From an uncultured virus (IMG/VR IMGVR_UViG_3300042869_000273) (taxonomy: Duplodnaviria > Heunggongvirae > Uroviricota > Caudoviricetes), in the IMG/VR virus record IMGVR_UViG_3300042869_000273: a DNA stretch of 64,000 nt; one strand, given 5' to 3'. The translations under genes and the position numbers were made by a program. Shown here piece by piece: positions 2,329 to 41,200 of this stretch. Each line of letters opens with the position of its first letter. The stretch's first letter is position 1. The notes beneath the pieces were generated by a model. The model was given only the letters and a program-made list of their open reading frames with translations. It was not told where the DNA came from and ran no database searches.

Positions 2329-4306
2329 TGTCTTCTGCCTCTACTGCGTTTGTTAGTGTTTGGAAATGAGCATATAGTTTATCAAATCCACCGATATACT
2401 CTCCGTCTAAATAAATTTGTGGTAACGATCTAACATCATCACGACCAGTAACTTCAGCCGCTGTTTTACCTAAAGCTACAATATCAATATAGTCAAATGC
2501 AATACTCTTTGAATTTAAAAGAGCTTTAGCCATTTCACAATTTGGACAATTAGGTTTACCATAAATAATTGTTGTTTTATCATATTTCAATTTATTTTCT
2601 TCAACTTCTTTGGAAACATTTTCAGCACGTACTTTAGCTTCTGTACGTAGATAATATAAACCTTTTAATCCAGATTCCCAAGCTAGTATATGCGCATCTT
2701 TAACATATTTCTTTTCTGCTCCTGCAGGGAAAAATAAATTAACAGATTGACCTTGACAAACAAACTTTTGTCTATCAGAAGCATGTTTAATAACCCAATT
2801 TTGATCTAATTCAAAACTAGTTTTAAACACAGCCTTTATATTATCTTCAAGAAATGGTAGGTGTTGTACTGAACCTCCATTAGTGATAATATTAGCCCAT
2901 ATTTCACTTGTGTTATGTTTAATTTTATCTAAATATTTCTCAAGATATTTATTCTTAACTAAGAAAGACCCTGCACGAGTACGATGTGTATATGCATTTG
3001 CTTTATTAGGTTCGATACTAGGAGAAGTACTTAATAAAATACCAGAAGAAGCATTGGGCGCAATTGCTAGTAGATGTGAATGTCTTACCATTGAAGGCGA
3101 CATATCAGGCGCAGGTCCACGACTGTGTGCCAGGGAATTAGATACTTCTTTTGCCTCACTTTTAATGTAGTCAAATATTTCAATATTTAGCTTAGAGGCA
3201 TCATTACTTTCAAAAGGTATCATTCTACTTTGTAATAAATTATGAAAGCCCATTGCACCAACACCAATTGATCTTTCTTGTGTAGCGCTATATACTGCTC
3301 TGCTTAGACTATCTGGGGCATTTTCAATAAAATATTCTAATACATTATCTAGCATTGTAACTAGATCTTTAACCATATTAGTGTGTTTCCATTGATCATA
3401 GTATTCTAGATTAACAGAACTTAAACAACATACCGCTGTACGATCATCTGATGTTGGTAAATGAATTTCATTACATAAATTACTTCCATGAACTTTCAAT
3501 CCTTTAGATTTTAGCTCCACTGGTAATGCATCATTAACTGTATCAATAAAATTAAGGTAAGGCTCCCCTGTGCGAAAGCGAGTTTCCAATAATTTGATAA
3601 ATACTTTTCGAGCATCAAGAAATTCGCCTGTGGATCCTTTCTTTGGATCAATAAGCTCATATTGTTTACCTTCTTTGACAGCCTCCATGAACTTATCAGT
3701 GATATTAACAGCGTTATGGAGGTTAAGACATTTACGATTATTATCTCCTGTGGGAACCCTAATACTGATAAATTCAAGAATATCAGGGTGATCAATATCA
3801 AGATATGCAGCATAAGATCCTTTTCTTGTCTTACCTTGTCGGTAAGCAGTCATGTCAGCGTCAATAGTACTTAAAAAAGGTATAGGTCCAGGAGCAATGT
3901 CAGATACACTACGGATGTCAGACCAATGACCTCCGACCCCTCCACCCATGACGGATAACCAACGAATTTCAGAACTATGATCAATAAGACCAGAGACAGT
4001 ATCAGGAACATAAGTTAAAAAGCAAGAAATTGGCATTCCTTTACCTTTACCTTTAATATCGGGAGCATTCGATAATACAGGTGAGGCAAACATAAACCAT
4101 TTGTTTGATATATAGTCATACAGTCTTTGAGCTAACTCTAAATCTGTTTGACCTTTGAATGTGCTCCATGCACGACAAGCTCTGGCATAAACTTCTTGTG
4201 GAGATTTTTCATTATCTTTTGCATAGAACTCTAGTACCATGTCAAAAGCATAATCTGTTAAAAGTTTATCTTTATCTAAATCAATTTCAATATCGTAGTA
4301 TTTCAT
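2303..4306 (-). CDS. nrdA: class I ribonucleotide reductase alpha subunit with C-terminal glutaredoxin domain
   Basis: ISCF, SNLCNEI, APNASS, KGLYY; then IIYGKPNCPNC...SLPQIYLDGEYIGGFD (glutaredoxin) and terminal ECKACEG. Confidence 0.95.
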   Translation of the reverse strand: MKYYDIEIDLDKDKLLTDYAFDMVLEFYAKDNEKSPQEVYARACRAWSTFKGQTDLELAQRLYDYISNKWFMFASPVLSNAPDIKGKGKGMPISCFLTYVPDTVSGLIDHSSEIRWLSVMGGGVGGHWSDIRSVSDIAPGPIPFLSTIDADMTAYRQGKTRKGSYAAYLDIDHPDILEFISIRVPTGDNNRKCLNLHNAVNITDKFMEAVKEGKQYELIDPKKGSTGEFLDARKVFIKLLETRFRTGEPYLNFIDTVNDALPVELKSKGLKVHGSNLCNEIHLPTSDDRTAVCCLSSVNLEYYDQWKHTNMVKDLVTMLDNVLEYFIENAPDSLSRAVYSATQERSIGVGAMGFHNLLQSRMIPFESNDASKLNIEIFDYIKSEAKEVSNSLAHSRGPAPDMSPSMVRHSHLLAIAPNASSGILLSTSPSIEPNKANAYTHRTRAGSFLVKNKYLEKYLDKIKHNTSEIWANIITNGGSVQHLPFLEDNIKAVFKTSFELDQNWVIKHASDRQKFVCQGQSVNLFFPAGAEKKYVKDAHILAWESGLKGLYYLRTEAKVRAENVSKEVEENKLKYDKTTIIYGKPNCPNCEMAKALLNSKSIAFDYIDIVALGKTAAEVTGRDDVRSLPQIYLDGEYIGGFDKLYAHFQTLTNAVEAEDNECKACEG

Positions 4307-13513: not shown

Positions 13514-13588
13514 TGGTCCCTCTTGTAGGAATCGAACCTACATTAATAACTTAGAAGGTTACTGTTCTATCCATTGAACTAAAGAGAG
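13514..13588 (-). tRNA. tRNA-Arg (anticodon UCU)
   Basis: CTCTCTT/AAGAGGG acceptor stem, anticodon arm GTAAC-CTTCTAA-GTTAT, GGTTCGATTCC T-arm, encoded CCA. Confidence 0.93.
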
Positions 13589-13590
13589 TG

Positions 13591-13665
13591 TGGTGGGATA
13601 AGTAGGAATTGAACCTACACTCAATCGATTATGAGTCGACTGCTTTACCATTAAGCTATTATCCC
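13591..13665 (-). tRNA. tRNA with CAU anticodon, most likely Ile2 (lysidine-modified, reads AUA); Met not excluded
   Basis: GGGATAA/TTATCCC acceptor stem, GTCGA-CTCATAA-TCGAT anticodon arm resembling enterobacterial Ile2 (GACTCATAATCG), encoded CCA. Confidence 0.88.
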
Positions 13666-14294: not shown

Positions 14295-16475
14295 TTAACA
14301 AAAAGCATAATCAGAATACACAATTTGACCGACATCTAGATTACCCCTTTCAGGGATAAGGTCTTTACAGTCAAGTTCAGCAAGCAATTTTTCAAGAGGT
14401 TTAGCCTTGTAAAATTCTACAAACTGTTCTCTTACTCTATAAAACAAATCATCCATACGTCCTGGTAAAGTACCAAAAGAATCATGGACAACAGTCATCT
14501 CATAGGGTGCAGATACAACAGTCATTGTCAAGTGGGCAGCATCAAAGCTATGCACAATATTTGGTGCAGCACCTGTCTTTTGGGAATCTTTATTAATAGT
14601 TGCTTCCTCCCAAGTTTGAAGTTGAACTTTTAATTCTTCTTCACCATACTTCAACTTAGTACGTATAATAGATGGCTTACGATATGCCTGAACAACTGGA
14701 AAGTTAGTTACAGGTGTAGTCCATTTTAAGAACACATCTTTTTCATTAGATCTTTGTGCAAGATCCTGAAACATACGTAGCATAGTAGCTGGTCCTTTTA
14801 GCTTTTCATAACAAGTCTGAAATACTAAATCACCTAGCAATGCACCCCAAAGATGTTCTTTGTCACGAAGATATTCAGACATATCACGAGTGTCATCAAT
14901 AATTTGTTGACCCATGCCATATGCAGTACCACCGTAACCGAGTGTCATTACATTTCTTTTTACTACTTTACGTTGATCTTTAGGATTATCAATTTTAAGC
15001 CAGTAAACAGGAAATAATTTTTCTCGGATTGCTCTATTTTGATTACGCCATTCTTGGGCAGCAGCATAGGCTAATGCTTTTTGCTCTGTCTTTTCAGGTG
15101 CATCAAAATATGCTTTTTGTAGTTCTTTAGCTTTACTATAAACAGAATCAAACTGACCTCTTTCTTCAGGTGTTAATTTGTCTGCCATTTCTTGTAGGTG
15201 TTCCCATACATATCTTGCAATATACATGTAGACATCACCAGGAAGCTCTTGTGGAACTAAATTTACTAATGGGGCAATCTCTTCGTCTTGAGACATGGCT
15301 ACTAGATGTTGAACACCATTATTAGAACCATCAATATACACAGGTAGTGAACATTCATAATCTTCTAATTTATTTCCTAACATCAGCCATTCTTTAATTT
15401 TCTTAAGTTCATTACAAGCAGCTAAAAAAGAGAAGGGAGCATCAGTGCCAGTCCAACCTTGATTAATAGTTGGTTTTTCTGCATAGGATAAGAATAAATT
15501 AATATTCTCATCTACAAATTCTGCTCTCTGTTTTAGCGTAACTTTATCATTTCCAAAAGAATTAGAGGTATGTACTTTTAACCAGAATAAACCATTTTCA
15601 CCAAGAGGTGTAGCTTGATCTAACAAAAGTAAACCTTTTGCATTGTCACTAGATTGCTCATGTAAAAATGCAGTATTAACATATACACGACCACGAAAGT
15701 CAAAATTGTATACGTGATAGAAAGCATTATCTAAATGACTCATAGCTAATTGTTCAATAGCTTCTGCTTCAATCATTAATGATTTCTTTTTCTCTTCATC
15801 AATCTCAGAGTGTAATTTAAAAGGGCTATTGTCATTTTCCTTATGAAGAAAATATTGATATACTTTAAATACATCTTTATTAATCCTCCACCCAGTATCT
15901 TGTAGTTTATTTAAAATGTCATACAATGTTTGTTTATCATTTTTCTTAAACTGTTCTAATGCTGTGGAATGACCTTTCTTAATAATTGGTACTCCTAGAT
16001 TGTTATGGGGTGATTTCCAATATTCAGGTTTTTCTCTCATAGGAAAGATATCTACCTTAGTTTGATCAATTAAACCCCAAAGTTCTTTGATTGCCTTCCA
16101 ATCTTTAACTTGAAAGAAGTAAGCTTGATATTTGCTTTTCTTACCATTCTTGTAAGTATACTTTAGTTTAAAAGAAAGTACGCCACATTCAATATAAGCA
16201 ATGCAAACAAACCAACCTACTTGTGCATCAGAGATAGTATCATTGGGTAAGCTTAACACTTGCCTAACTCTACGACCAATAGTTGCAATAATGTCAACTA
16301 ATGTACCTCTTCTTTCTAAACCTCGTAATACATGGGGATAAGATATATCAACTAATAATTTAGAATCAACATCTTTTAAGTAATGAGTATAAATATTTCG
16401 ATCAGCCCTTAATACAGACTGTCTAGCACTAAGATCAGCTACTAATTTTTCAAGAATAGTTGTCATAGTATTCAC
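14295..16475 (-). CDS. single-subunit T7-like DNA-dependent RNA polymerase
   Basis: DFRGRVY, motif A DGSNNGVQH, motif B RKVVKRNVMTLGYG, APNIVHSFDA, motif C VHDSF, C-terminal YAFC. Confidence 0.95.
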   Translation of the reverse strand: MNTMTTILEKLVADLSARQSVLRADRNIYTHYLKDVDSKLLVDISYPHVLRGLERRGTLVDIIATIGRRVRQVLSLPNDTISDAQVGWFVCIAYIECGVLSFKLKYTYKNGKKSKYQAYFFQVKDWKAIKELWGLIDQTKVDIFPMREKPEYWKSPHNNLGVPIIKKGHSTALEQFKKNDKQTLYDILNKLQDTGWRINKDVFKVYQYFLHKENDNSPFKLHSEIDEEKKKSLMIEAEAIEQLAMSHLDNAFYHVYNFDFRGRVYVNTAFLHEQSSDNAKGLLLLDQATPLGENGLFWLKVHTSNSFGNDKVTLKQRAEFVDENINLFLSYAEKPTINQGWTGTDAPFSFLAACNELKKIKEWLMLGNKLEDYECSLPVYIDGSNNGVQHLVAMSQDEEIAPLVNLVPQELPGDVYMYIARYVWEHLQEMADKLTPEERGQFDSVYSKAKELQKAYFDAPEKTEQKALAYAAAQEWRNQNRAIREKLFPVYWLKIDNPKDQRKVVKRNVMTLGYGGTAYGMGQQIIDDTRDMSEYLRDKEHLWGALLGDLVFQTCYEKLKGPATMLRMFQDLAQRSNEKDVFLKWTTPVTNFPVVQAYRKPSIIRTKLKYGEEELKVQLQTWEEATINKDSQKTGAAPNIVHSFDAAHLTMTVVSAPYEMTVVHDSFGTLPGRMDDLFYRVREQFVEFYKAKPLEKLLAELDCKDLIPERGNLDVGQIVYSDYAFC

Positions 16476-17066: not shown

Positions 17067-17316
17067 GTTTCTTATCTACAAAGACTAAGTCTTCAACTGC
17101 TTTAAAAATTCTACGAAAGTCTTCAGCAGACTCTGTAATAACAGAAGCTATAGTTTCCCCAGTCATATAAGCTGATTTAACATCATATAATGAAGGGGAT
17201 ACTATCGCTTGTAAAAAGTCATCATACACAATTACTTCAACAGAGTCAAAGGCATTGTATTGAATGGCTTCAATAGTGTAATCACCTGCTTTTAAAGTTA
17301 GTCTAGGCATAATCAA
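17056..17316 (-). CDS. hypothetical protein
   Basis: ORF track. Confidence 0.6.
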   Translation of the reverse strand: MIMPRLTLKAGDYTIEAIQYNAFDSVEVIVYDDFLQAIVSPSLYDVKSAYMTGETIASVITESAEDFRRIFKAVEDLVFVDKKLGV

Positions 17317-17558
17317 TCCTCAATTAGTTGATCATAAATTGAAGTAAACTCAATGATAGATCCATCAAGTTCAACTTCAGTACACATTCTTTCAATTAAC
17401 TCTTTAGATGTACTAGTAGCATAAACTGCTGGTATACCTTTAGTGTCATTTGAGAAGATATAAGTAAGACCAAATTCCTCTAATGATTCAATGATTTCTT
17501 GCGCTGTACATCCGAAGTTATCGCCATACAGTGGGTTTAACAAAAGAAATTTACTCAT
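17313..17558 (-). CDS. acidic hypothetical protein
   Basis: ORF track; GGAG RBS. Confidence 0.6.
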   Translation of the reverse strand: MSKFLLLNPLYGDNFGCTAQEIIESLEEFGLTYIFSNDTKGIPAVYATSTSKELIERMCTEVELDGSIIEFTSIYDQLIED

Positions 17559-17584
17559 TATAACTCCAAAATTAAAAGAACTTG

Positions 17585-17659
17585 GTACTTACCCCAAGAG
17601 GTCTCTCTGCTGAGAAAGTCTAGTACATACCCTAGAGGGTCTCTCTATCCGAGAAGGCT
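17585..17659 (-). repeat. two tandem imperfect 37-nt units, each folding into two hairpins
   Basis: Plus strand gtacttaccccaagaggtctctctgctgagaaagtct (17585-17621) and gtacataccctagagggtctctctatccgagaaggct (17623-17659). Confidence 0.75.
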
Positions 17660-17772
17660 TAAATGTAAGTTACTATACTTACAAGTTCAGGATTAAAATA
17701 TTTTAAATCTTCTACATAGGCAATAGTTGTAATTAAACTACCATCTGCTTTATTGTAAACAAAATAAATCAT
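17659..17772 (-). CDS. small 37-aa protein (not in ORF track)
   Basis: MIYFVYNKADGSLITTIAYVEDLKYFNPELVSIVTYI; AAGGA RBS. Confidence 0.55.
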   Translation of the reverse strand: MIYFVYNKADGSLITTIAYVEDLKYFNPELVSIVTYI

Positions 17773-17781
17773 TTTAATTCC

Positions 17782-17877
17782 TTATTCAACTAACGCATCT
17801 AAACCATGAAGTAACGCAGCTACTAGCACAAGTGCAATTATAACCGCTAATAAAACATCAAGAATAATTTCTGACAT
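17782..17877 (-). CDS. small 31-aa single-TM protein (not in ORF track)
   Basis: MSEIILDVLLAVIIALVLVAALLHGLDALVE; GAGGA RBS. Confidence 0.55.
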   Translation of the reverse strand: MSEIILDVLLAVIIALVLVAALLHGLDALVE

Positions 17878-17885
17878 ATATCCTC

Positions 17886-18296
17886 TTATTTAGTAAGATT
17901 ATCATAAGCTTTTGAAACACCCTCATGAGCCTTTGCATAACCATAAGTAAATCCAATCACAGCTTTATCTTTAAAATTGCGATCTTCTACTGGCGTTACA
18001 ATTGCTTTCTCAAAAGCTGTAGGTTCATTTGCCTTGTTAAACAAAGCTAATTTATCACTACGATCTTTTTCGTCAAATGCACATACTGCTACATTGCCAG
18101 TAGTTGCAATAGTACCTGTTATAATACTTGTTGCAATTATTGGTCCTGCGCCAGGGATAAGCAATGAAGCTGCTGCACCTGCTAATGCACCATAAGTACC
18201 TACCTTGAGAACCTCTTTAGGCTTACAAAATGCTTCACTTGCAAAAGAAGAAACACTAGCAATGCTCAAAGACAAAACAATTAAGAACTTTTTCAT
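17886..18296 (-). CDS. signal-peptide protein with glycine-zipper-like hydrophobic hairpin
   Basis: MKKFLIVLSLSIASVSSFA; GALAGAAA...GAGPIIA. Confidence 0.65.
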   Translation of the reverse strand: MKKFLIVLSLSIASVSSFASEAFCKPKEVLKVGTYGALAGAAASLLIPGAGPIIATSIITGTIATTGNVAVCAFDEKDRSDKLALFNKANEPTAFEKAIVTPVEDRNFKDKAVIGFTYGYAKAHEGVSKAYDNLTK

Positions 18297-18324
18297 TTAA
18301 AAACTCCGTTAGTTAACAAAAAAT

Positions 18325-18376
18325 ACACAAGACCGTTTCTCAACGGTTTCGTCTCATAAAGACTCATCAGTTGTGC
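18325..18376 (-). ncRNA. hammerhead ribozyme (type I)
   Basis: GCACAA CUGAUGA GUCU-UUAUG-AGAC GAAA CCGUU-GAGA-AACGG UC^UUGUGU: complete core and three paired stems. Confidence 0.92.
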
Positions 18377-18630
18377 TGCTTATTACATACTGCCATTACC
18401 TTATAAGGGTCTACTGGCTTAATAGTAAAAGGATCTTTTGCTTTCTTGATTTCTTTATCAAGGGCATAGACTGAAACTTCTAAAGCATCCATTTGGCATA
18501 TTGTTTTAGCCTTATCAGTTGCTTTAATTATTCCATCTTCAATTAACATATCTACGTACTTCTCATGCTTAGATGCCATAGCACTAGTAGACAATACTGC
18601 GATTGATACTGCAATAATTAGCTTTAACAT
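18367..18630 (-). CDS. signal-peptide hypothetical protein
   Basis: MLKLIIAVSIAVLSTSAMA; two Cys; AAGGA RBS; TGA stop lies within the hammerhead CUGAUGA. Confidence 0.65.
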   Translation of the reverse strand: MLKLIIAVSIAVLSTSAMASKHEKYVDMLIEDGIIKATDKAKTICQMDALEVSVYALDKEIKKAKDPFTIKPVDPYKVMAVCNKQHN

Positions 18631-18722
18631 TTGATTTCCTTTAAAAGTTTACTTTGATTTGAGTACTCTATCTAATGATATTTCTTCATTATAGATACGT
18701 CATTTTTCTCACTTTTTTTGAT

Positions 18723-18747
18723 AAAAAAGGCCACCTTTTAGGTGACC
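18723..18747 (-). terminator. rho-independent terminator after pcyX, before the small-gene block
   Basis: GGTCACC-TAAAA-GGTGGCC-TTTTTT. Confidence 0.8.
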
Positions 18748-18750
18748 ATT

Positions 18751-18837
18751 TTAATGTACTTCGCAGTACCATTTGATATATTCTTTAGTATACCAATAAA
18801 ATATTGGAGGTACAGTTAGTAGTGCAATGTATTCCAT
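18751..18837 (-). CDS. possible 28-aa peptide (not in ORF track)
   Basis: MEYIALLTVPPIFYWYTKEYIKWYCEVH; GAGG RBS; fills the gap from pcyX to the terminator. Confidence 0.4.
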   Translation of the reverse strand: MEYIALLTVPPIFYWYTKEYIKWYCEVH

Positions 18838-18838
18838 A

Positions 18839-19525
18839 TTATACCTCTGGAAAAAGACATTCTTGAATAAACTTGTTTACTGTTTCTTCATCAAAGCCAA
18901 GAGACTGCATTACTCTAGGTGTATGAGGATTTTTCTTTTGATTTTGACAATACCAATTTTGTTGTTCAGTAAAATTAAAATTTTCTATCTTATAATCATA
19001 ACTATGCCGACTACTTAGCTTATGTAGTGTATCTAAATACTTTTCTAATGATCTTTTAGATAGCTCGAGTATTTCATTTAACTCAAACTCAGAATTAATA
19101 TTACCAGCAGCTACCATTGAAGAACTAAATATATTCTTAGCCCACTCAGGTAGTTCTCTAGGTTTACTCCATTCTTGATCTTTTACTTCATTAGCAAACC
19201 ATTTAACTAGTTCGTGATCTTTATTACCACAAGGACTAAAATCATGGAATGCTCCAGTAACTTTATTAGTCCCAGCAATAAGATCAAATCCGTAGATAGG
19301 TGCATCACTGTAGACCTTTGGAAATACACAGAGGTGCATCATGTAAAGCTTTTTATTATCTCTAGCATCTACTACATCTAAGTGTGCTCTACGAACATGA
19401 GCATTAACATAGATATTATTTTCCCAAGGGAATGGATGAGTCTCTTCAGATAAGAAAGTTCTTGACTCTAATATATCTTTAAAGTCTTGTGTATGCTTCT
19501 CAAGTTTACTGAATATTATGCTCAT
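18839..19525 (-). CDS. pcyX: ferredoxin-dependent bilin reductase, PcyX-type
   Basis: RRAHLDVVD, H.CVFP, PIYGFD.IAG..KVTGAFHDFSP, RELPEWA.NIFS, YC..QKKNPHT, CLFPE. Confidence 0.8.
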   Translation of the reverse strand: MSIIFSKLEKHTQDFKDILESRTFLSEETHPFPWENNIYVNAHVRRAHLDVVDARDNKKLYMMHLCVFPKVYSDAPIYGFDLIAGTNKVTGAFHDFSPCGNKDHELVKWFANEVKDQEWSKPRELPEWAKNIFSSSMVAAGNINSEFELNEILELSKRSLEKYLDTLHKLSSRHSYDYKIENFNFTEQQNWYCQNQKKNPHTPRVMQSLGFDEETVNKFIQECLFPEV

Positions 19526-20042
19526 CAGCTAACTCATCAAATAGTTGTGTTGCAAAGGCAAAGACTATCTTAGCTTCATCAGCTAAATCGTCTGTTAATT
19601 TTTCTCTAGCAATAGCAATAAGTTCTGTGCGATTATAAAATTCATACATTGAACCAGAACCTGGAACTAACTTCTTTAGCATTTGACCACCGTACATATC
19701 ACCAAAATGGCGGACATAAATGTGGGCAAGTAATTGTTCTTTTGAACATTTTCTGACATACTCACAGTAAGCCATTGTGCTCATGTGTAAATGTTGTCTA
19801 GACTTGTCTCTATTTAGATCTCGTAGATCTTGTGCAATCTTTGCTGTACGTTTAATAGTTACAATATCATCTAATAAACCTAATGCTTCAGCAGTTTGCT
19901 CTAATGCAGCATAGCAATGTTTTTGATTAAACAAAAAGTCACCATACTCTTCTTTTGTAATTTTTCCTGCAAATAGTTTCTTTACAAAAGGATGATTCTC
20001 TGCACTATCATGTGCATCTTTAATTAATTCTCTTAACGCCAT
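19506..20042 (-). CDS. hemO: heme oxygenase
   Basis: H..AE proximal His, Y..LE, AHIYVRHFGDMYGGQ, EAKIVF. Confidence 0.9.
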   Translation of the reverse strand: MALRELIKDAHDSAENHPFVKKLFAGKITKEEYGDFLFNQKHCYAALEQTAEALGLLDDIVTIKRTAKIAQDLRDLNRDKSRQHLHMSTMAYCEYVRKCSKEQLLAHIYVRHFGDMYGGQMLKKLVPGSGSMYEFYNRTELIAIAREKLTDDLADEAKIVFAFATQLFDELADEHNIQ

Positions 20043-20089: not shown

Positions 20090-20623
20090 TTATTTTTTAT
20101 GACCCCATAGGGACATAGAATAACGTGATCCATAAAATACTGGTTTAGCTCTATGAGTTAAAATAGATGGAAAGAAAACTACAGAACCTTGTTTAAGTGG
20201 TATACTAAATTTTTTATCAGAAATAAATATTTCTAATCCGCCACCAATATAATCTTTAGGGTTTGATAATTCAACAACTCCAGAAAGTATTCTGTAGTTT
20301 CCAGTTGTACCTAGATCTATATGTTTATTGTAATGATCTAAAAATTTATATTCAGCTATTTGAAGATTTTCAATTTGACTCAATTCTTGTAAATGACTTT
20401 CTTTACTTTCATAAAACATTAAATCAATTACTTTTCTAGCTATATTATTATATTCTTCTCCAGACTCAGGAGTAATCCAAGCCACTTTGCCTTTTCTTCT
20501 AAAAGAATTTTGTTTTAGTTCATGGGTTGTGGCAGTTTCGAATTTATCTTTTGAATATTCAATTAGGTATTCACATTCTTCTTTTGATAATACATTATCA
20601 TAATACTTATACATCGGTCTCAT
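20090..20623 (-). CDS. 2OG-Fe(II) oxygenase (prolyl-hydroxylase-like)
   Basis: HID, Y.GG.L, FPS...H.A.PV..G.RYS. Confidence 0.85.
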   Translation of the reverse strand: MRPMYKYYDNVLSKEECEYLIEYSKDKFETATTHELKQNSFRRKGKVAWITPESGEEYNNIARKVIDLMFYESKESHLQELSQIENLQIAEYKFLDHYNKHIDLGTTGNYRILSGVVELSNPKDYIGGGLEIFISDKKFSIPLKQGSVVFFPSILTHRAKPVFYGSRYSMSLWGHKK

Positions 20624-21263
20624 CTAAAAATCCTATATTAAAACTGACTATGATTCTATCTTCTGTAGAGTTATTTGGTAATGATCTATGAGGCAACCAA
20701 GAAGGAAATATAACCATTAATCCTTCTTCTGGAGAAATACTATGTTTAGTTTCTACATTTGGGAATGTAGGCATATCAGTATGCATAAACATTGTTTTGG
20801 CTACCCATGAAGGATCATGAAAAACAATATCTCCACAATTCTTTGGAGTCTTAGAGTAGAACACACCACTAAGATATGAGTTAGAATGCACATGCTCAGG
20901 TACAAAAGCACCTGGTGGATAAATTGTTGTCCACATGTTAATAATATGCATTTTCTTATTATTAGGATTTACTGTATTAATCATAGTTTTTGAAAAATCA
21001 AAAATAAAATCAGATACATTTTTCCATTCTGGTTTATGAAATAAATCTTCAATTGAATTAAAAGAAGTTACTCCACTTTTATAAAAGTCTTCTTTATTAG
21101 ACGATTTTATTCCTTGATCCCATTCTTCAGAAACTAAACTACCTTCTTTTAGATTATCTCTTAAACTATAGGAAAGAGCATTAAGCTCTTCCCTGATAGA
21201 TACTAAGTCCGACTTCCCAATCAAAAGTGGTGTAGCCATTATTGGTCTTAAAAATTCACTCAT
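20607..21263 (-). CDS. putative 2OG-Fe(II) oxygenase (TIGR02466-like)
   Basis: HVH...LSGVFY, P.EG.MVIFPSWLPH, RIIVSFN. Confidence 0.85.
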   Translation of the reverse strand: MSEFLRPIMATPLLIGKSDLVSIREELNALSYSLRDNLKEGSLVSEEWDQGIKSSNKEDFYKSGVTSFNSIEDLFHKPEWKNVSDFIFDFSKTMINTVNPNNKKMHIINMWTTIYPPGAFVPEHVHSNSYLSGVFYSKTPKNCGDIVFHDPSWVAKTMFMHTDMPTFPNVETKHSISPEEGLMVIFPSWLPHRSLPNNSTEDRIIVSFNIGFLDETDV

Positions 21264-31566: not shown

Positions 31567-34500
31567 TTAAAAACTAAGATTTGCAGTGGGCATACCATTA
31601 ATACCTGCCGTGGTTGATCTTGCTCTTGTATTTAGGTTAAGTAATGGACCTGTGTTATTATTAAGTGCCATTGTTGTAGTTTTACCAGTATAAAATGGAG
31701 GAATAGTTAATGTTTCATAAGTAGTCCATGCACCCGTATTATCGAACCTGTATTCTGTTACAATTGTTATATCTGAACCTGTATCATTATACTTATTAAG
31801 ATCTACCCTAAACCAATAATATGCATTTCTTGGAATAGTTGTTGCTCTTGTAGTTGGATAGTCTAGATATAATTCATATACTACTGGAGGTACATAAGGT
31901 GTTTTAGATGTATCTGCAATATTCCAAGTTACTGAATTACCTGCTTGAATAGTTCTAGCAGCATTAGTGTAGAAAGTACCAGTGACAGTTTCTGTACCCT
32001 CAGTAAACAAATCTGCAGTCATTCCTAAAGTAAAACTTCCAGTACGAGCAGGTATAGTAAATGAGCCTTGTAACGCTTGTTCAGCTGTATCATTTGCCGT
32101 AATATTAGTTCCACTAATTTGCCAATAGATTGTAAAAGGTAACATCGAGTCTGGTATATTTCCAAATGACCAGCTTATAGTAACATTGGCTCCTTCATCA
32201 ACAGTAAAAGGAGAAGCAGTCCAGCTATAGGTAGGAGCACCTACTGAAGTATCGTCAATTACCCAACTAAGTGAGTTTCCAGCCGATACTGTTTTAGCAG
32301 CATCTTTATAGAAAGAAATAACAGCAGTCTCATCTCCCTCTGTTTTACTATCAGCTGCCATTGCAATACTTGGACCAGCACTACTAACAAAGCTACCAGT
32401 TAAAGAACCTGAAGTAAGATCCGAAGCTTCTATTCCTATAATAGTATAATAGAAAACTACAGGAGATTGAGCAGGATTACTTGGAGTAGCAGAAATTTGT
32501 ATACTGCTAGGAGTACCCGTTTCTTTAATCTTTACAGGATCAATAGGTGCTCTGGTAAATGACCAAGTAGTCTGAGAAATATCATTTACAGTAAGAGTTA
32601 ACTTAGAAAGAGGGCCTACTAGCCCAGTTTCAGGATCATAAACTGTAGGTCCAAACTTTATTTGATTTGCTGGTAACCTAGTTGGTAGTGTATAAAACTT
32701 AAATACTAATGTTTCTGTATTTTCAGTAAGTTGGTCTGATAAGGGACTAAATACTTTAATAAAATTTGAACTTAGTAAATCAAATTCTCCATCTATACCT
32801 CCAGTAGTATTAGTAGTTACTAAATCTGTATCAGAAGTATTAACACCTGTACCTAATGCTCTATAATATACTTTTTGAGGATAAGAAGGAATATCAGCAC
32901 TCTGTATTCTTATCCATGTAGGATACCCTTCATCTAATGTACTGGTATACGTTTCATCGGTATCATATAAAGATATCCTATATGAAGGAGGTGATTTTGA
33001 GGTATCCTCAATTACCCAACTAAGAGTATTACCAATTTGGACAGTTCTATTTGAATCAGAATAGAAAGTAATAGTTGCTGTTTCATTACTACCGTCTGTG
33101 AAAGTGTCTGCATATATAAGTATATCTTTTCCATCAGCCGAATTAAAACTTCCAGTTAATGATCCAGAAGATAGATCGCTTGCTAAAATACCTGTTATAC
33201 CATAGTAAACTGTTATTGCTGAAGAACTTGCATTACTTGGTTGTGCAAAGAAAGAAATAAATTGACCTTCTGGTATTGACCCTGTAGCTGGACTTCTAGT
33301 AAATGACCAAGTTGTTTTAGAAGTATCATTTAGTATTACAGATGCAGTATTACCAATTTGGGTAGTAAGTGCAGCATCTGAGTATATAGAAACAGTTAAT
33401 GTTTCTGAATTTTCAGTTAATTGGTCTGCTAAAATATTTACCGCATAAGAAGTAAATGCACTTGTAAGCACAATTGGACCAGAAAGAGCATAATTAGTAT
33501 CTAAAGCTGTAATACCAGTACCAGTAAGTTTATAATATATTGTAACTGGATATAGAGGTATATAACTGCTACTTACAGAAAAATCAATAGCTAAACCTTC
33601 GTTTACACTATTATTACTAATATTAGGAGAAGAAAATTCTACGCTATAATAAGGTGCATTTAAAGAAGTATCATTAACATCCCAAACTAATGTATTACCA
33701 ATTTGAATACTTCTAGTACTATTACTATAGAAGCTTATCTCTACTGTTTCTGGACCTTCAGTAGCAGTATCTGCCGCCATAGTTATAGTTAAACCAGTAT
33801 TAGATGTGAAGCTGCCTAATGTACCAGCTGGATCAAAATCTCCATCAAGGATAGTACCAGTTACACTTTTTAACCAATAGTAAACTGTAATTGGTGCTTG
33901 TGCAGGATTGCTTGGGGTAGCTGTAAATGCGATTGATTTGTTAGTCCCAGTTTCATTAATAGAACCAGTAGCTGGTATTCTAGCAAAGCTCCAAGTCGTT
34001 TTAGAAGCATCCGCTAACACAATAGATACTGGACTACCTAATTGAATTGTCCTATTAGAATCTGAATAAATAGTAAAAGTTAATGTTTCATTTCCTTCAG
34101 TATATTGGTCAGCTGTAACATCGATATCAAAAGATACACTTGGTCCTGGAACATTTACAGATCCTAATATAGGATCAAAACTAGTATCATCTACTGTTAT
34201 ACCAGTGCCAGATAATTTATAATATGCTGTAAAAGGATATGTTAGTACATTGGCACTATCAATAGTAAATGAGAAGTTAGAACCTTCATCTACTGATGTT
34301 TCAGATACTGATAAGCTATAAGATGGGGGTGTCTTAGAGGTATCCCCAATATTCCAACTTAATGGGTTACCTATTGTAATAGTTCTATTAGAGTCTGAAT
34401 AAAAGGTAATTCCTGCTACTTCTGCAAAAGGTTCCGTAAATAAATCCTCTCTCATAGTAAGGATAAGACCTGTATTACTATTAAAGCTACCCTCTAAAGA

Positions 34501-37500
34501 AGCAGAAGTAAAATCTCCTGTTGTTATATTAGTTCCATTTAACCAATAATAGATTGTAATATTTGGGGCTAATGGATTACTTGGAGTAGCAGTAAATGAA
34601 ATAGGTTGGCCTTCATCTATTGTACCAGTTGCTGGTATTCTAGCAAAAGTCCAAGTAGTCTTTGACGTATCTCCAATACTAAAAGAAAGTTGATTTCCAA
34701 TAGTAGTAGTATAATTTGAATCAGAGTAAAATGTTATTACTAATGAGTCAGTACCTTCTGTAAGTTGATCTGCTTGAATTAGGAACGTAATTTCTTCAGA
34801 ACTATCCTCTATCACCCAACTACCTTGTAGTGCATTTAAATTAAAGTCTTCAGTTGTAATTCCAGTGCCAGTAATCTTATAATATATTGAGAGATTAGTA
34901 TAAGAAGGTATAAAACTACTGTTAGCTGTTACAGTCACAGATACACCTTCATCTACAGTAGCTGTATTTGGATCTCTTACGAAAGACCAGGAAGGTGGTG
35001 GTGTTTTAGAAGTATCCGCTATATCCCATGTTACTGTATTTCCTGCTTGGTTAGTAAATGAAGTATCATGATAAAAAGTTAGAGTTACTAATTCAGGATT
35101 AGTTTCTGTAGTTAAATCTGGAGCCATTGTTAAACCAATAGTTTGTCCAGTAGCAGTTATGTTCCACTCAAATGTTGTAGAGTTAGGTGGAGAGCTAAAG
35201 TCTGAAGAAGTAATGTTTGTACCAGTCATTTTACCGTACAATATTTTTGGTAATACTGCGTTTGTACTGATAGTAATAACTTGATTTGAACCCTCATTTA
35301 CAGAAGCAAAAGATCTCGAGAAAACATACTGAGGATCTCCCATTGTCCAAGATATAGAATTACCAATAGGTACAGTTCTTGCTGGATCAGAATACATATC
35401 AAAGAATACAACTTCTCCAAATAAACCTTCTACAGTATAGTCTTCTACACCAGTAAAAGTTAATGTAACTGGATTATCATTATTTAATACTGTCTCTGTT
35501 AATAGAGTGCCACTAATAAAATCTGCACTAGTTAAATTAGCATTTCCTCCAGTTATTTCTCCATAAACAGTATAAGGATAGCTTAGGTAATTAGGCTTTA
35601 TCGTGAGAGTTTGAGTTTGACCTTCTACTACAAAACCTAAACTTCTCTCTACAGAAATAGCATCTATAATTTGCCATTCTAACCCAGTAATAATATCAGT
35701 ACCAGCAGCATCTCTATAAAAAGTTATTTGAAAGGTCTCTGTACCTTCTGTAATATTATCTTCTTTTATTTGAAACAATACTTGCTGATCTACTGATGTA
35801 ACATTAAAAGCTATTACTGAACCTGTTGTAAAGTTAGTATCAGTATCAAGAGTGCCATTACCAGGGGCAATTCGATAATAAATTGTATAAGGATAAGTGG
35901 GTACATTAGTACTCTGAATTCTAACAACCATATTAGTACCTTCTCGTACTAAAGCAGTAGTTGGATTACCAGTTACTTTACTAAATGACCAATTAATAGG
36001 AGTAAGTGAAGTATCTTTTAAAGAAACATTAAAACCAAGATCTGCTAATCTAGTTCTCGGTATTGGCATATCTTTATCTAAAAATATTGTAAAAGATTCA
36101 TCTCCCTCGGTCTTTAAATCTGCTTTAAATTTAAGAGTAAAAGAACCTAAACCACTCGTAGTATTAACATAATATGTATCACCTGAAACATAATTTATTC
36201 CATTAATCTGAGCAATATCATCCTCAGATGCACCTGTAATAGCTGTTAATCCAATAATTGCCCTAGTACCAGTTGGAGCTGATGTAGTTACATCATATGT
36301 ATACTCAATACCTTCGTTAATAGTGTTTGGACCTGATATAGACCAACTATACTCTAATGAAGTATCATTAACAGTAAATTCAACAAATATAGCTGGATTA
36401 TCATCAATACTTAGTCTTAATTTTTTAGGGCCATCTACTCTAAAATCATTTTTGGCTCTAAAGACTATTGATGCACCAGGGGTAGTAGTATTGGCAGGGA
36501 GTGTAAATCTATTAGCAACTACAGTAGCCCCACTACCTAGTGTAACAGTATCTAGCCAATCGTTAGCATCAAAGGGTTGATCCGTGGCCCCTACTGAGCT
36601 AGGTACCTGAGAGAGTGTATAGTTTACTACTCTAGGAGAAGTTGAACTCTCTAAAGTATTTAATGTAACCGCAACATATTCACCTTCATTAATGCTTGTT
36701 ACATTTGCTGGAAACGTTGACAAGTTATAAAACTTTGTATTTTTAAGACTAAATTGCTGTGCTGTACCAACTAGAGCAGTTCCATCAATATTTGTAATTG
36801 TTACAGTAACTGTTTCTGTTTGCTCAAATATATTATCAGATGAAACTACAAGAAAAAATCTAGACGTACTATTACTTATTGTGAAAGTTCCTGTTAATCC
36901 ATCATTAAAATCTGAAGCAGTTACGCCAGTGCCAGACAGAGTATATCTTAATTGTCTGCCAGTAGGAACATTAACAGTGGTTACATCGCACTGAATAACA
37001 GCGAGATTTCCCTCTTGTTCTTGAGCTGTATTAGTACTTAAAATTAAAGTATAACTTGCAGCTGGAAATGTTCCTCCAATATAGCCTGGAGAATGAGTTA
37101 GAGCATTAATATATAATGGATTATGATCTATACTATCAGGTAATATACTTTTAATTGAACTAGATCTAGTTGAAGCATTAAAAAATCTAGATCCAGTAAA
37201 TCCTAAGTTTCCAGATTTAACTTCTTCAGTTATCCTAGGCATCCAAGAAGATAGGTAACCACCACTTTGATTAAAAAAGGATAAATACCTTTCTCTTTTA
37301 AAGTATGAACTATCTAAATAAGTTAATTTATTAACATCTAAATTTGGTAAGAAATATGCAGGATAGTCTACAGCGGGTATAATATATTCTTGTCCACCAT
37401 TAGGTTGTACAAAAGCATCAAAATTAATACTACTTATTGGCTCTATTTTTAGATGTGACTTTGTTGTGTCAAATACACATTGATCAGAACTATTGAATAA

Positions 37501-37911
37501 TCTAGCACCATAACCAGAACCTGCAGTTGTTATCTGCCCGAGACTGAAACAATATACTTCAGGGATATCATCTGGTACTGGGAGATAATTTGTATTTACT
37601 GCTGCATATATGTAAATACTTTGATTACCTGAATAAAATGGATTTGTTACATTATAAGCTTTGTTATATATAGTATCAGATGGCAATGAAATATAAAATA
37701 CTCCATTAGTTACATTTGGAGGACTATATGTAATACGATAAACAGAATAATTTCTGGTAACATTATCACCATGTGTATAAGAAAACGCTGGAATCTCAGA
37801 GGATATTTCTGCAGCAGCAAAACTAGCCCTTCCGACAAACCAGGGTTTTACAATTTCATTGTCAATAACTAATTCAGAAGAATCATTAAAAAATTTAAAA
37901 CCATAACTCAT
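31567..37911 (-). CDS. 2114-aa virion protein with ~15 tandem Calx-beta/Ig-like repeats
   Basis: ~110-aa repeats V.EG...YY..TGT.IT..D...AD..TEG.E...TFYSD...IGN...W.I.DTS. Confidence 0.75.
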   Translation of the reverse strand: MSYGFKFFNDSSELVIDNEIVKPWFVGRASFAAAEISSEIPAFSYTHGDNVTRNYSVYRITYSPPNVTNGVFYISLPSDTIYNKAYNVTNPFYSGNQSIYIYAAVNTNYLPVPDDIPEVYCFSLGQITTAGSGYGARLFNSSDQCVFDTTKSHLKIEPISSINFDAFVQPNGGQEYIIPAVDYPAYFLPNLDVNKLTYLDSSYFKRERYLSFFNQSGGYLSSWMPRITEEVKSGNLGFTGSRFFNASTRSSSIKSILPDSIDHNPLYINALTHSPGYIGGTFPAASYTLILSTNTAQEQEGNLAVIQCDVTTVNVPTGRQLRYTLSGTGVTASDFNDGLTGTFTISNSTSRFFLVVSSDNIFEQTETVTVTITNIDGTALVGTAQQFSLKNTKFYNLSTFPANVTSINEGEYVAVTLNTLESSTSPRVVNYTLSQVPSSVGATDQPFDANDWLDTVTLGSGATVVANRFTLPANTTTPGASIVFRAKNDFRVDGPKKLRLSIDDNPAIFVEFTVNDTSLEYSWSISGPNTINEGIEYTYDVTTSAPTGTRAIIGLTAITGASEDDIAQINGINYVSGDTYYVNTTSGLGSFTLKFKADLKTEGDESFTIFLDKDMPIPRTRLADLGFNVSLKDTSLTPINWSFSKVTGNPTTALVREGTNMVVRIQSTNVPTYPYTIYYRIAPGNGTLDTDTNFTTGSVIAFNVTSVDQQVLFQIKEDNITEGTETFQITFYRDAAGTDIITGLEWQIIDAISVERSLGFVVEGQTQTLTIKPNYLSYPYTVYGEITGGNANLTSADFISGTLLTETVLNNDNPVTLTFTGVEDYTVEGLFGEVVFFDMYSDPARTVPIGNSISWTMGDPQYVFSRSFASVNEGSNQVITISTNAVLPKILYGKMTGTNITSSDFSSPPNSTTFEWNITATGQTIGLTMAPDLTTETNPELVTLTFYHDTSFTNQAGNTVTWDIADTSKTPPPSWSFVRDPNTATVDEGVSVTVTANSSFIPSYTNLSIYYKITGTGITTEDFNLNALQGSWVIEDSSEEITFLIQADQLTEGTDSLVITFYSDSNYTTTIGNQLSFSIGDTSKTTWTFARIPATGTIDEGQPISFTATPSNPLAPNITIYYWLNGTNITTGDFTSASLEGSFNSNTGLILTMREDLFTEPFAEVAGITFYSDSNRTITIGNPLSWNIGDTSKTPPSYSLSVSETSVDEGSNFSFTIDSANVLTYPFTAYYKLSGTGITVDDTSFDPILGSVNVPGPSVSFDIDVTADQYTEGNETLTFTIYSDSNRTIQLGSPVSIVLADASKTTWSFARIPATGSINETGTNKSIAFTATPSNPAQAPITVYYWLKSVTGTILDGDFDPAGTLGSFTSNTGLTITMAADTATEGPETVEISFYSNSTRSIQIGNTLVWDVNDTSLNAPYYSVEFSSPNISNNSVNEGLAIDFSVSSSYIPLYPVTIYYKLTGTGITALDTNYALSGPIVLTSAFTSYAVNILADQLTENSETLTVSIYSDAALTTQIGNTASVILNDTSKTTWSFTRSPATGSIPEGQFISFFAQPSNASSSAITVYYGITGILASDLSSGSLTGSFNSADGKDILIYADTFTDGSNETATITFYSDSNRTVQIGNTLSWVIEDTSKSPPSYRISLYDTDETYTSTLDEGYPTWIRIQSADIPSYPQKVYYRALGTGVNTSDTDLVTTNTTGGIDGEFDLLSSNFIKVFSPLSDQLTENTETLVFKFYTLPTRLPANQIKFGPTVYDPETGLVGPLSKLTLTVNDISQTTWSFTRAPIDPVKIKETGTPSSIQISATPSNPAQSPVVFYYTIIGIEASDLTSGSLTGSFVSSAGPSIAMAADSKTEGDETAVISFYKDAAKTVSAGNSLSWVIDDTSVGAPTYSWTASPFTVDEGANVTISWSFGNIPDSMLPFTIYWQISGTNITANDTAEQALQGSFTIPARTGSFTLGMTADLFTEGTETVTGTFYTNAARTIQAGNSVTWNIADTSKTPYVPPVVYELYLDYPTTRATTIPRNAYYWFRVDLNKYNDTGSDITIVTEYRFDNTGAWTTYETLTIPPFYTGKTTTMALNNNTGPLLNLNTRARSTTAGINGMPTANLSF

Positions 37912-38277: not shown

Positions 38278-41200
38278 TTAAATTGCTAAGTTACCTATAA
38301 TAACCCTAGGTAAACTACTACTTGATCCATAAACTAATATTTGGCTATCAGTTAACAATATTCTATTGGCTCCAGATGTATTACCGATTGCTAAAGCTGA
38401 AGTAGAAATAGTACCAGTTACTACCGCACTACCATCTACATATAATGCAACTTCACCCCAACCACTTCCATTGTACAAATATGTTTTAGAATATTTTGCA
38501 GATTGATTGAATAAAGTAACCCTATCCCCAGCTCTAGGGGTTTGATTATCTATAGGTGATGTTTCTGTTACAGGGTATGCATTGGTTAAAGCAGCTTGAC
38601 ATGCAGTCGCAATTGTAGCAGGACTTGCAGATGAGTCAAAAGCTACAGCCCAAGTTAATACAGCAATACCTCTTAAGCCCTTTTTACCCTCGTCGCCTTT
38701 ACTACCTTTTGCAGTTTGCAATAGGGGTACAGTTTGTGAGTCAACTTGTGAGTTAGTACCACTTAAATACAATACACCTCTTACAAATTTTGTAGTTAGA
38801 GGTACAGTACTGCTATTTACTGGTATAGATTTAGAATTAGTAGGATCACTTGCAGCGCTAATAGTTGTCCATGAACTACCATCTGCACTTCCTTGGATCT
38901 CAATTTTACCAGCATAATTAGCATAAGCACTATTACCAGATTTTACTTCAGCATTAAAGGTTAAACTAGTAGGTGAATAGGTTAGCAATGTAGTATCATA
39001 TATTAAGCTATTAGCACTAGGTGATATCTTGTAAATAGAACTAGATTTCATTTTAGTTAATGAAAATACCTTTTTAGCAACTTCAACTCCATCTACTTTA
39101 GCTATATATGTTACTGAAGCCACATTAACAGAAGGAGAACTACTAATTCCTGAAGTAATTTCATACATTCCAAGGGAGTTTGGGGCTGCAGGAGGAGTAT
39201 CAAATCCAGTGCTAGTGTCATAATGATAAGTTACACCAGTAGCTGCTACGCCATCTTTAGTTACTAAGAATTGACCTTTAGCCTCTTGATAAGAGGTCAC
39301 TACACCTGTTTCATTTGAAGGTAAACCTTGGCTATCATTAGTGAGCCAACCAGTATAAGGTGTTACTCCATCTATTCCATCTTTACCATCAACACTCTTG
39401 TTAACAATTAATTCTTTTCTACCTATAATAGTAGCACCTAATTTAGCAATAAATGTTGCTTTACCTACATCTGCAGTAATATTTGTAACTTTTACAAGAC
39501 CAGTGTATTCTCCAATTTCAACTGAAAGATTTGTTGGGGTAATAGCAGGATCTATATAAAAAGTTAAACCAGAAGTTATGTAAGAGGCACCTCTAGCAAC
39601 TTGCATATTAGTAAAAAATGGTAGTTGATTACTTGGAGATAAGACTCCAGCTGCGGTATAACGAATAGTTTTATTTTCATTTGTGAGTGTAGCATTGTAG
39701 CTATCATCTCCATCTTTAATAGAAAATACAGTTATTTGATCGTATACATTTATAGTAGCATCTGTAGATGAAGTTACAACTACCTTGACTAATTTTGGTT
39801 GACCAATATATCTTGTTAAGGAATAAGTAGATGTTGTACCAACTGGAACTACTTGTTGTCCATCTACAAACCAAGTGTATCTAGCAGAAGTTACACCTTC
39901 AGCAACAGCAGTAAAAGTAATCGTATTAGGGAAAACATCAGTTAATGCTGTTGTATTTTTTGGTTGTACAAACGCAATACCATCAGAGGTAAGATTTACT
40001 ACAGGAGCATCCAATCCATCAGCGCCATCAGCGGCTTTATTAATTACAATCTTTTTCTCATGAATAGAACCGTCAGATGCAACTACAGCTCTAACTGTTG
40101 CGTACCCAACTCTAGACGTAAGAGGTCCTGTGAAACTATTTACAGTTACTACACCTGTGCTAGGATCTACTGTTGCATCTATATTAATATTTGAACCAGA
40201 GACAATAGAAAACAATACTGTATTTGTATTAGGGGGAGTTGTAACAGTGTTAGCAATTCCAGCACTACCACGAAATAACAACGGAGTCATTATAAGAGAT
40301 AGGAAGTCAGGAAGTATTGCTCCTGTAGGATCACAACCAATTGTTCTATTAGCATCTACATAGTCAAAATTATATGCACTACTACCATCTTTAACACTAT
40401 AAATTGTAACATTATCAAAACGTCTAATTCCTGAGTCAGCAGCTTCATAAACTTCTACATTAATATTTCTAGTTTCTCCACTAGGAAATGCAGCTAAAGT
40501 TATCATACTAGTTGTAAGAGTTACACCAGCGGGAGTAGCGCCATCAACTTCCCATACATAACGGGGGTCATCAAACGCTTCCTCTCTAGCATACACATTG
40601 ATTGAAGCTTGATCTGGGGTATTAGAGTTAGCAGGATAAACAAAACCTAATCTATCAGGGTCTAATGTAACAATCCTAGTAGCTGCAGCAGTAGACTTAG
40701 CTATTCTTAATGTAATACTTAATGTTAAGCTTGCAGCTGTGATAGTAGCATCAATATCTACTCTAGCATATGGATCTGCCACTGCAGTAACTGTGAATAT
40801 ACCATTTGTAGTTGTATTACTTTGTAGTGTACAACCAACTGGATTTAATGTATATACGATACCTTCTGTAACAGGAGTAGCTCCTTTATAAACATCAATA
40901 TTTATAGATTGAGGTAACTGGCCTGCTTCTGGTACTCCATTTGAATCACAAGTTAAATTTAAGGCTGCTTCAGATAAACCGATAGCATAAGAGTCAGAAC
41001 CTGCATTAATATAATAGACTGTTTCAAAGTCCTCTAAGAATGTAGTAGTTATTCCTTCAGTTACTCTAACTTTAATATCTTTAGTTGGGACATCAATAAA
41101 ACTAGGTACACTAAATGTAGCTGATGTTTGGCCAGCTTGTAAAACCTCGTTAATATACCATTTATAAGTAGGAGCATCAAATCCAGTTACATTTACTGAA

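Follow-up and report, generated by a model that had tools for sequence, protein, structure and literature searches.

A probable compact type I hammerhead ribozyme overlapping the stop codon of a small early gene in an uncultured freshwater phage

Introduction

Hammerhead ribozymes are present in the genomes of bacteria and their viruses. Prophage hammerheads that flank single genes have been reported to cleave both in vitro and in E. coli, and the accessible text of the same paper proposes that phage hammerheads divide lengthy phage transcripts into mRNAs about one gene long (Perreault et al., 2011; PMC3088659). In bacterial and phage DNA, type I hammerheads whose helix III is long have been described, according to the accessible part of PMC13725137. 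As far as the available text of two reviews goes, the role of bacterial and phage hammerheads is still considered open (PMC6765202; PMC6155905). The element described here is probably a compact type I hammerhead. It lies among the early genes of an uncultured freshwater phage, which carries a gene for an RNA polymerase of its own.

Two further systems offer points of comparison. RNase III sites lie between the early genes of phage T7; cuts are made upstream of the phage RNA polymerase gene and a hairpin is left at the upstream 3′ end. Synthetic insulators of the RiboJ type are engineered elements derived from a satellite-RNA hammerhead and are placed behind a promoter.

In this study, the anatomy, genomic context and relatives of the phage element were analysed. 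The whole 64-kb stretch of viral DNA that was analysed is called the window, and coordinates refer to it unless a contig is named.

Results

Anatomy and fold of the element

A 52-nt type I hammerhead ribozyme motif was found on the minus strand at 18376..18325, on the basis of sequence, fold and a covariance model (R1). Read 5′ to 3′, it begins with the 5′ strand of stem I (GCACAA, 18376-18371), followed by the core heptamer CUGAUGA (18370-18364), stem II (GUCU, loop UUAUG, AGAC; 18363-18351), which has 4 bp with a fifth U.G pair possible, and the core GAA (18350-18348). Stem III (ACCGUU, loop GAGA, AACGGU; 18347-18332) comprises 6 bp including the A15.1-U16.1 pair. It is followed by C17 at 18331, the last base of a GUC cleavage site, and by the 3′ strand of stem I (UUGUGU, 18330-18325), which forms 6 bp with 18376-18371, the terminal one being a G.U pair. 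The predicted cut lies between 18331 and 18330. The core of the hammerhead class is complete (CUGAUGA, GAA, A15.1-U16.1 and C17, where H17 is required and not G), and all of it is invariant across the lineage. Helix I is open and holds both RNA ends, and helices II and III are closed by the loops UUAUG and GAGA, as is the rule in type I; the three helices measure 6, 4-5 and 6 bp and show covariation. A preliminary description of this DNA had reported a type I hammerhead with the full consensus and a cut at 18331/18330. Every feature that it listed was found on the minus strand at 18376..18325, and the predicted cut position agrees with C17 at 18331.

Our own hammerhead descriptor, applied to both strands of the 64-kb window, returned this single site. 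No type I hammerhead was found in 300 dinucleotide-preserving shuffles of the window, even with the stems relaxed to at least 4, 3 and 3 pairs. The heptamer CUGANGA by itself occurs 44 times in the window (both strands), compared with a mean of 26.8 in dinucleotide shuffles, an excess that is probably due to codon usage. When a 56-nt stretch was folded in isolation, the hammerhead came out as the minimum-energy structure (-14.5 kcal/mol, z -2.16) and also as the centroid, and 6 of 200 shuffles folded as well or better. Within 161 nt of context the minimum-energy fold is not the hammerhead, the 3′ half of which pairs with the start of ORF136; this competing fold is weak (ensemble frequency 0.006, z -0.88). 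Model R1, which we built from the ribozyme, scores the window site at 84.8 bits. By eye, loop II can be paired with the 5′ flank over 4-5 bp in the window and in the related locus L008; this pseudoknot was dropped, since pairing of such A/U-rich sequence is no evidence.

Comparison with Rfam models

A scan of the whole window at Rfam gathering scores detected two tRNAs only and no hammerhead, and a whole-window scan by E-value (E up to 1) revealed no further ribozyme. Sub-threshold Plastid-ycf2 matches on the strand opposite the tRNA genes look like tRNA artefacts. A search with the Rfam hammerhead models had been named as a check on the motif, and none of these models reaches its gathering score at the site. 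RF00163 (Hammerhead_1, type I, clan CL00010) gives 22.2 bits against a gathering score of 34, as measured on the near-identical record G001; RF00008 (Hammerhead_3) gives 28.7 bits against 48.5, aligned in an ill-fitting type III register; and RF03152 (RAGATH-1 hammerhead) gives 21.9 bits against 56.3, the last two scores coming from a local E-value scan. The word "perfect", which the preliminary description had applied to the hammerhead, is accurate for the core and the helices and fails for Rfam.

With RF00163, 13 of 14 control genomes also gave matches below the threshold, so a match to this model means little by itself. A gathering score is the curated threshold of a particular model and not a feature of the ribozyme class. 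Like RF00163, the element has type I topology (helix I open, helices II and III loop-capped) and the same core; it differs in being compact, with a long helix III and a 6-bp helix I that has no internal loop. We infer, without having inspected the seed alignment, that the RF00163 model represents the compact phage form poorly. Rfam thus leaves the motif neither confirmed nor refuted. The evidence for it is anatomical and comparative.

Genomic context

Genes in the window lie predominantly on one strand: 63 of the 72 ORFs of at least 75 aa are encoded on the minus strand, including every ORF longer than 160 aa. The upstream part of the minus-strand order consists of structural and tail genes, two 2OG-Fe(II) oxygenases, a heme oxygenase, a ferredoxin-dependent bilin reductase and a terminator-like hairpin. 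The rest comprises a promoter-like leader, ORF87, the hammerhead, ORF136, small ORFs, the RNA polymerase, two tRNAs and replication genes. Four very long ORFs were identified in the structural region of the minus strand (31567-37911, 38278-43749, 44931-51068 and 56145-60566), with lengths of 2114, 1823, 2045 and 1473 aa, respectively. The two oxygenase genes (20090-21263, minus strand) lie ahead of the genes for heme oxygenase (1e-21) and bilin reductase (Pfam Fe_bilin_red, 6.7e-22), which overlap by 20 nt (18839-20042, minus strand). The heme oxygenase, bilin reductase and 2OG-Fe(II) oxygenase genes are auxiliary metabolic genes located just upstream of the early region.

The bilin reductase gene is followed downstream by a terminator-like hairpin with a U-run behind it (18729..18747, minus strand), identified as a consensus match only; it likely marks the end of the preceding transcription unit. 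Next comes a promoter-like or 5′UTR leader (18632..18717, minus strand) with the motif TATAAT at 18693-18688, which is conserved in relatives and may be a promoter. As the terminator-like hairpin and the conserved leader lie just upstream of it, ORF87 is plausibly the first gene of its transcript.

ORF87 (18367..18630, minus strand) encodes 87 aa with a hydrophobic N-terminus that by eye resembles a signal peptide. ORF136 (17886..18296, minus strand), with 136 aa, likewise has an N-terminus that looks like a signal peptide, together with a glycine/alanine-rich hydrophobic stretch, both judged by eye. Neither protein could be assigned to a family: there was no match in Pfam or PHROGs, and NCBIfam yielded sub-threshold noise only. 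The hammerhead lies between these two genes on the coding strand, with phage genes around it. The stop codon of ORF87 (18369-18367) is U4G5A6 of the ribozyme core, and U7G8A9 (18366-18364) forms a second in-frame UGA. The final ORF87 codons, for H and N, are encoded by the 5′ strand of stem I. From the predicted cut, a 34-nt leader (18297..18330, minus strand), which would carry a 5′-OH after cleavage, extends to ORF136. It begins with the stem I 3′ strand (18330-18325) and contains a GGAG Shine-Dalgarno-like motif at 18307-18304, 7 nt ahead of the ATG of ORF136 (18296). The preliminary description had placed the stop codon of the ORF at 18367..18630 inside CUGAUGA, had taken the 5′ strand of stem I to be coding, and had given the next gene a leader of about 34 nt. 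All three points were borne out: the ORF ends at U4G5A6, stem I encodes its last codons H and N, and the distance from the cut to the ATG at 18296 is 34 nt. Further along the minus strand are a gene for a single-subunit RNA polymerase (16475..14295) and, just downstream of it, adjacent tRNA genes for Arg-TCT and Met-CAT (13514-13665).

Four metatranscriptome runs (contigs; 5-6% of sampled words) were compared with positions 17300-19600; positions 18301-18608 were uncovered, so these runs are uninformative on transcription and cleavage. A contig from one RNA run (X1) joins 17902 to 18676 and skips the 773 bases between them (17903-18675), which hold ORF87, the hammerhead and ORF136. This junction suggests a natural relative that lacks the cassette.

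Distribution and conservation in the lineage

Based on the RNA polymerase, the nearest cultured phages are the roseophages DSS3_VP1 and DSS3_PM1 (Naomviridae), with ~50% identity. A blastn search with positions 17800-18700 gave no match among cultured phages. The only match of model R1 to DSS3_VP1, of 16 bits and 21 nt, was rejected, and this phage has no hammerhead of the kind described here. Relatives, 32 viral loci in all, were gathered via the RNA polymerase. Model R1 matches four of these 32 sources (the window, L007, L008 and L013), a relaxed descriptor concurs, and the R1-positive contigs are exactly those in which homologues of ORF87 and ORF136 were found. The ribozyme is present at the stop codon in all four of the four metagenome loci encoding ORF87. 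Relatives of ORF136 were detected at four viral loci. In L014 and L020, ORF136 is kept behind a different, 36-aa ORF and both ORF87 and the ribozyme are missing; in L004, L005, L006, L009 and L010 the whole cassette is absent. The ribozyme travels with ORF87, since loci with ORF87 carry it and relatives without the cassette do not. Judging from these genomes, the lineage can do without the hammerhead: the cassette is missing from close relatives, and the ribozyme from L014, L020 and DSS3_VP1.

Between lineages, 48-52 of the 52 ribozyme positions are identical. Identity of ORF87 in the same comparison is 34-38 of 85 aa and 136-144 of 255 nt (53-56% at the nucleotide level); the reading frame of the homologues is intact, and the C-terminal KHN that helix I encodes never varies. 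The ribozyme changes seen in the lineage are a U-A to C-G replacement on both sides of stem III, a G.U to A-U change at the end of stem I and one base in loop II. The catalytic core is intact at seven of seven lineage loci (the window, L007, L008, L013 and L159-L161), and none of the 13 core positions varies while there is covariation in the stems, both in the lineage and in the wider family described below. This conservation and covariation show that the RNA structure of the ribozyme is under selection. Covariation in related phages, which had been named beforehand as a check, was thus obtained at both levels, with one compensatory stem III pair in the lineage and 12 of 16 pairs in the family among the matches listed.

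The 34-nt leader is conserved in relatives and its U-run is not (AUUUCCC...). Stem III with the U-run was considered as a terminator and rejected; this reading falls because the U-run after helix I is not conserved. The promoter-like leader (~85 nt, with TATAAT) is 82-92% conserved, for instance at 3445-3559 and 3689-3770 of L007 and at 3034-3118 of L014. In some relatives it is repeated before each small early ORF, and in the window it occurs once only. It looks like a portable promoter/5′UTR module for swapped-in early genes.

A wider family in viral contigs

A search pattern that specified only the core plus the inner three pairs of helices II and III, and left helix I free, gave at least 120 matches in viral contigs, and 80 loci were retrieved. 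A covariance model applied to these 80 sources found 85 hammerheads, some of them additional copies lying a few hundred bases away from the pattern matches. Among the matches listed, 56 distinct members had enough flank for helix I to be assessed; it is exactly 6 bp long in 40 of them and at least 4 bp in 54. The inner pairs of stems II and III are set by the search pattern, and the helix I result comes from plain sequence and is independent of the model. In the family alignment (A3; 61 distinct rows from the matches listed), 99.6% of cells are paired and both partners change in 12 of 16 pairs, counts that lean towards structure because the alignment was fitted to the model. The covariation takes in all 6 pairs of helix I, and none of 500 shuffles reaches the observed score, again for the matches listed.

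An unpaired A caps the 5′ side of helix I in 39 of the 56 members, and A occupies the first and second positions on the 3′ side in 35 and 33 of them (matches listed). Loop II is short and U/A-rich (4-5 nt) and loop III is often GNRA or UNCG in the listed matches. The window has an A on both sides of helix I, UUAUG as loop II and no internal loop in helix I; its stem I is short and A-U rich. In natural extended hammerheads, a tertiary contact between helix I and loop II allows fast cleavage at physiological Mg2+. A comparable contact may form here; its signature looks conserved in the family and is scored poorly by the Rfam type I model.

The 128 ORFs flanking family members fall into 78 similarity clusters; among the matches listed, ORF87 and ORF136 are matched by the window's own lineage only. 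Where downstream ORFs of at least 50 aa were found, they mostly start 20-47 nt after the cut (matches listed). Several contigs carry more than one family hammerhead. Three were found in L070 (20-68, 595-643 and 1051-1102), spaced by a few hundred bases, two in L092 (595-643 and 1171-1219), and two each in L041, L051, L065, L076, L078, L096, L102 and L114. In multi-copy contigs the hammerheads flank single small genes, and one contig gives four pattern matches over L091, L092 and L093.

Position of the upstream stop codon

The upstream stop codon was surveyed in 55 distinct members, from the matches listed, whose upstream flank spans 200 nt or more. Where upstream ORFs of 50 aa or more existed, the longest was taken and the position of its stop was measured relative to C3. 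The stop lies in the core UGA (+1) in 12 of these members, three of which belong to the window's own lineage, in the 5′ strand of helix I in nine, and at -12 to -7, that is, 1-6 nt before helix I, in 18. It lies at +11 in two members, at -30 to -13 in two and beyond -30 in nine; the remaining three lack an upstream ORF of that length. Among these listed matches, 41 of the 55 have their stop between -12 and +11 of the core, and 11 have it more than 12 nt upstream. The register at which the upstream gene stops differs between homologues (+1, -8 and -9 in one group; +1, +11 and -3 in another), so the exact overlap is interchangeable.

Both flanks of the ribozyme are near-minimal, so compaction alone would set it against a stop codon. 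The overlap appears to be mainly a consequence of tight gene packing, with the core supplying the UGA. A literature search for a stop codon inside a hammerhead found nothing relevant, and the term "stop codon" occurs 0 times in the available text of PMC3088659, PMC6765202 and PMC6155905.

Discussion

Proposed role

Based on anatomy, conservation and gene order, the element most likely serves to cleave itself during transcription and so to part ORF87 from ORF136 and the genes that follow, and we regard this role as probable. The analysis establishes the motif, the selection on it and the family to which it belongs; transcription, cleavage and the consequences for the mRNA are what we infer. The ORF87-ORF136 message would be transcribed on the minus strand, with the ribozyme folding during synthesis and cutting after C17, between 18331 and 18330. 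The upstream piece would retain the ORF87 stop and end in the two ribozyme hairpins and a 2′,3′-cyclic phosphate. The downstream piece would start with a 5′-OH and six ribozyme bases, as part of a 34-nt unstructured leader before ORF136 and the following genes. The two cistrons would gain separate ends and hence separate stability and translation. RNA ends with a 5′-OH or a cyclic phosphate are poor substrates for 5′-end-dependent decay and for 3′ exonucleases, respectively, and because such ends resist these activities the two messages could have separate fates. The element would thus act as a ribozyme counterpart of the nuclease processing sites between phage early genes.

Alternative explanations

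The stop codon within the core allows a reading in which the ribozyme is gated by translation: a ribosome on ORF87 would melt the 5′ strand of stem I and the core, and cleavage, or release of the downstream message, would track upstream translation. The stop is U4G5A6 in all lineage members examined, and that of the longest ORF lies within -12 to +11 of C3 in 41 of the 55 members from the matches listed. Measured against the size of a ribosome footprint, to which the distances of stops from the core were referred, this range is inside the footprint. With type I topology the stop codon also stays on the 5′ side of the cut, so that termination would still be normal afterwards. The register varies, however, across the same listed matches (12 stops in the core, nine in stem I, 18 at -12 to -7, two at +11, 11 more than 12 nt upstream and three members without an ORF), and it differs between homologous upstream genes; compaction of the near-minimal flanks suffices as an explanation, and no experiment or paper on such gating was found in the literature searched. 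Since most stops fall within the ribosome footprint of the core, an effect of the ribosome on folding is possible, but it is not needed to account for the data. The idea put forward in the preliminary description, that the core stop couples cleavage to translation, finds no specific support in the 55 listed members or among the homologues. Packing would explain the overlap better than a dedicated translation switch, and we consider gating unlikely. If it did operate, the placement near the stop would be functional and upstream translation would set the fate of the downstream message; a protein-free translational coupling built from a ribozyme is accordingly a doubtful prospect.

It could also be supposed that the ribozyme is a passenger of a mobile ORF87 cassette, active or decaying, that is kept by linkage alone and has no role for the phage. 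Its constant association with ORF87, its absence from close relatives, the RNA-library contig that joins 17902 to 18676 without the cassette, and the mosaic early region with its repeated leader modules are all compatible with this. A neutral passenger would decay, though, and the core is intact at all seven lineage loci. The ribozyme has moreover kept 48-52 of 52 positions, compared with 53-56% nucleotide identity in ORF87, and it has undergone a compensatory change. We regard linkage alone as quite improbable. Least credible is that the site is no ribozyme and consists of two ordinary hairpins, a terminator or a protein-binding site, that match the consensus by chance. Stem III does resemble a terminator, a U-run follows stem I in the window, and the Rfam scores are under gathering. 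Against these points, none of 300 shuffles gives a match, the U-run is replaced in relatives (AUUUCCC...), and 13 invariant core positions with covarying stems, in lineage and family, make a chance match very hard to sustain.

Significance

The locus is a clean single-copy test case, with one ribozyme, two small genes and a likely promoter just upstream; natural relatives without the ribozyme or without the upstream gene add to its value. The tendency of family members to hug the upstream stop and to keep a cut-to-start spacing of mostly 20-47 nt is a regularity not found in the searchable literature. It has now been given numbers, and the stop-hugging can be tested directly with reporters. 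This form of the type I hammerhead is common in phages and is missed by the Rfam thresholds.

Comparison with known systems

As far as the accessible text of the 2011 study describes them, the prophage hammerheads share with this element the consensus core, the three helices, a coding-strand site between small phage genes and the proposed role (Perreault et al., 2011). The present case differs in that a single hammerhead occurs in 64 kb, with no cluster, and in that the phage is an uncultured freshwater relative of the Naomviridae. The words "stop codon" and "overlap" occur 0 times in the available text of PMC3088659, and an overlap with the upstream stop is not described there. Phage elements of this kind have been known since 2011, and overlap with a stop codon is common among them.

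With the RNase III sites of T7, the element shares cutting between early cistrons upstream of the RNA polymerase gene and a 3′ hairpin on the upstream piece. In T7 a host protein enzyme acts on a double-stranded stem and leaves a 5′-phosphate and a 3′-OH, whereas here a self-cut is predicted, with a 5′-OH and a 2′,3′-cyclic phosphate. RiboJ-type insulators likewise place a hammerhead before a cistron, remove the upstream RNA and define a 5′-OH leader, as is predicted for the phage element. RiboJ sits behind a promoter, whereas the phage hammerhead sits on a stop codon.
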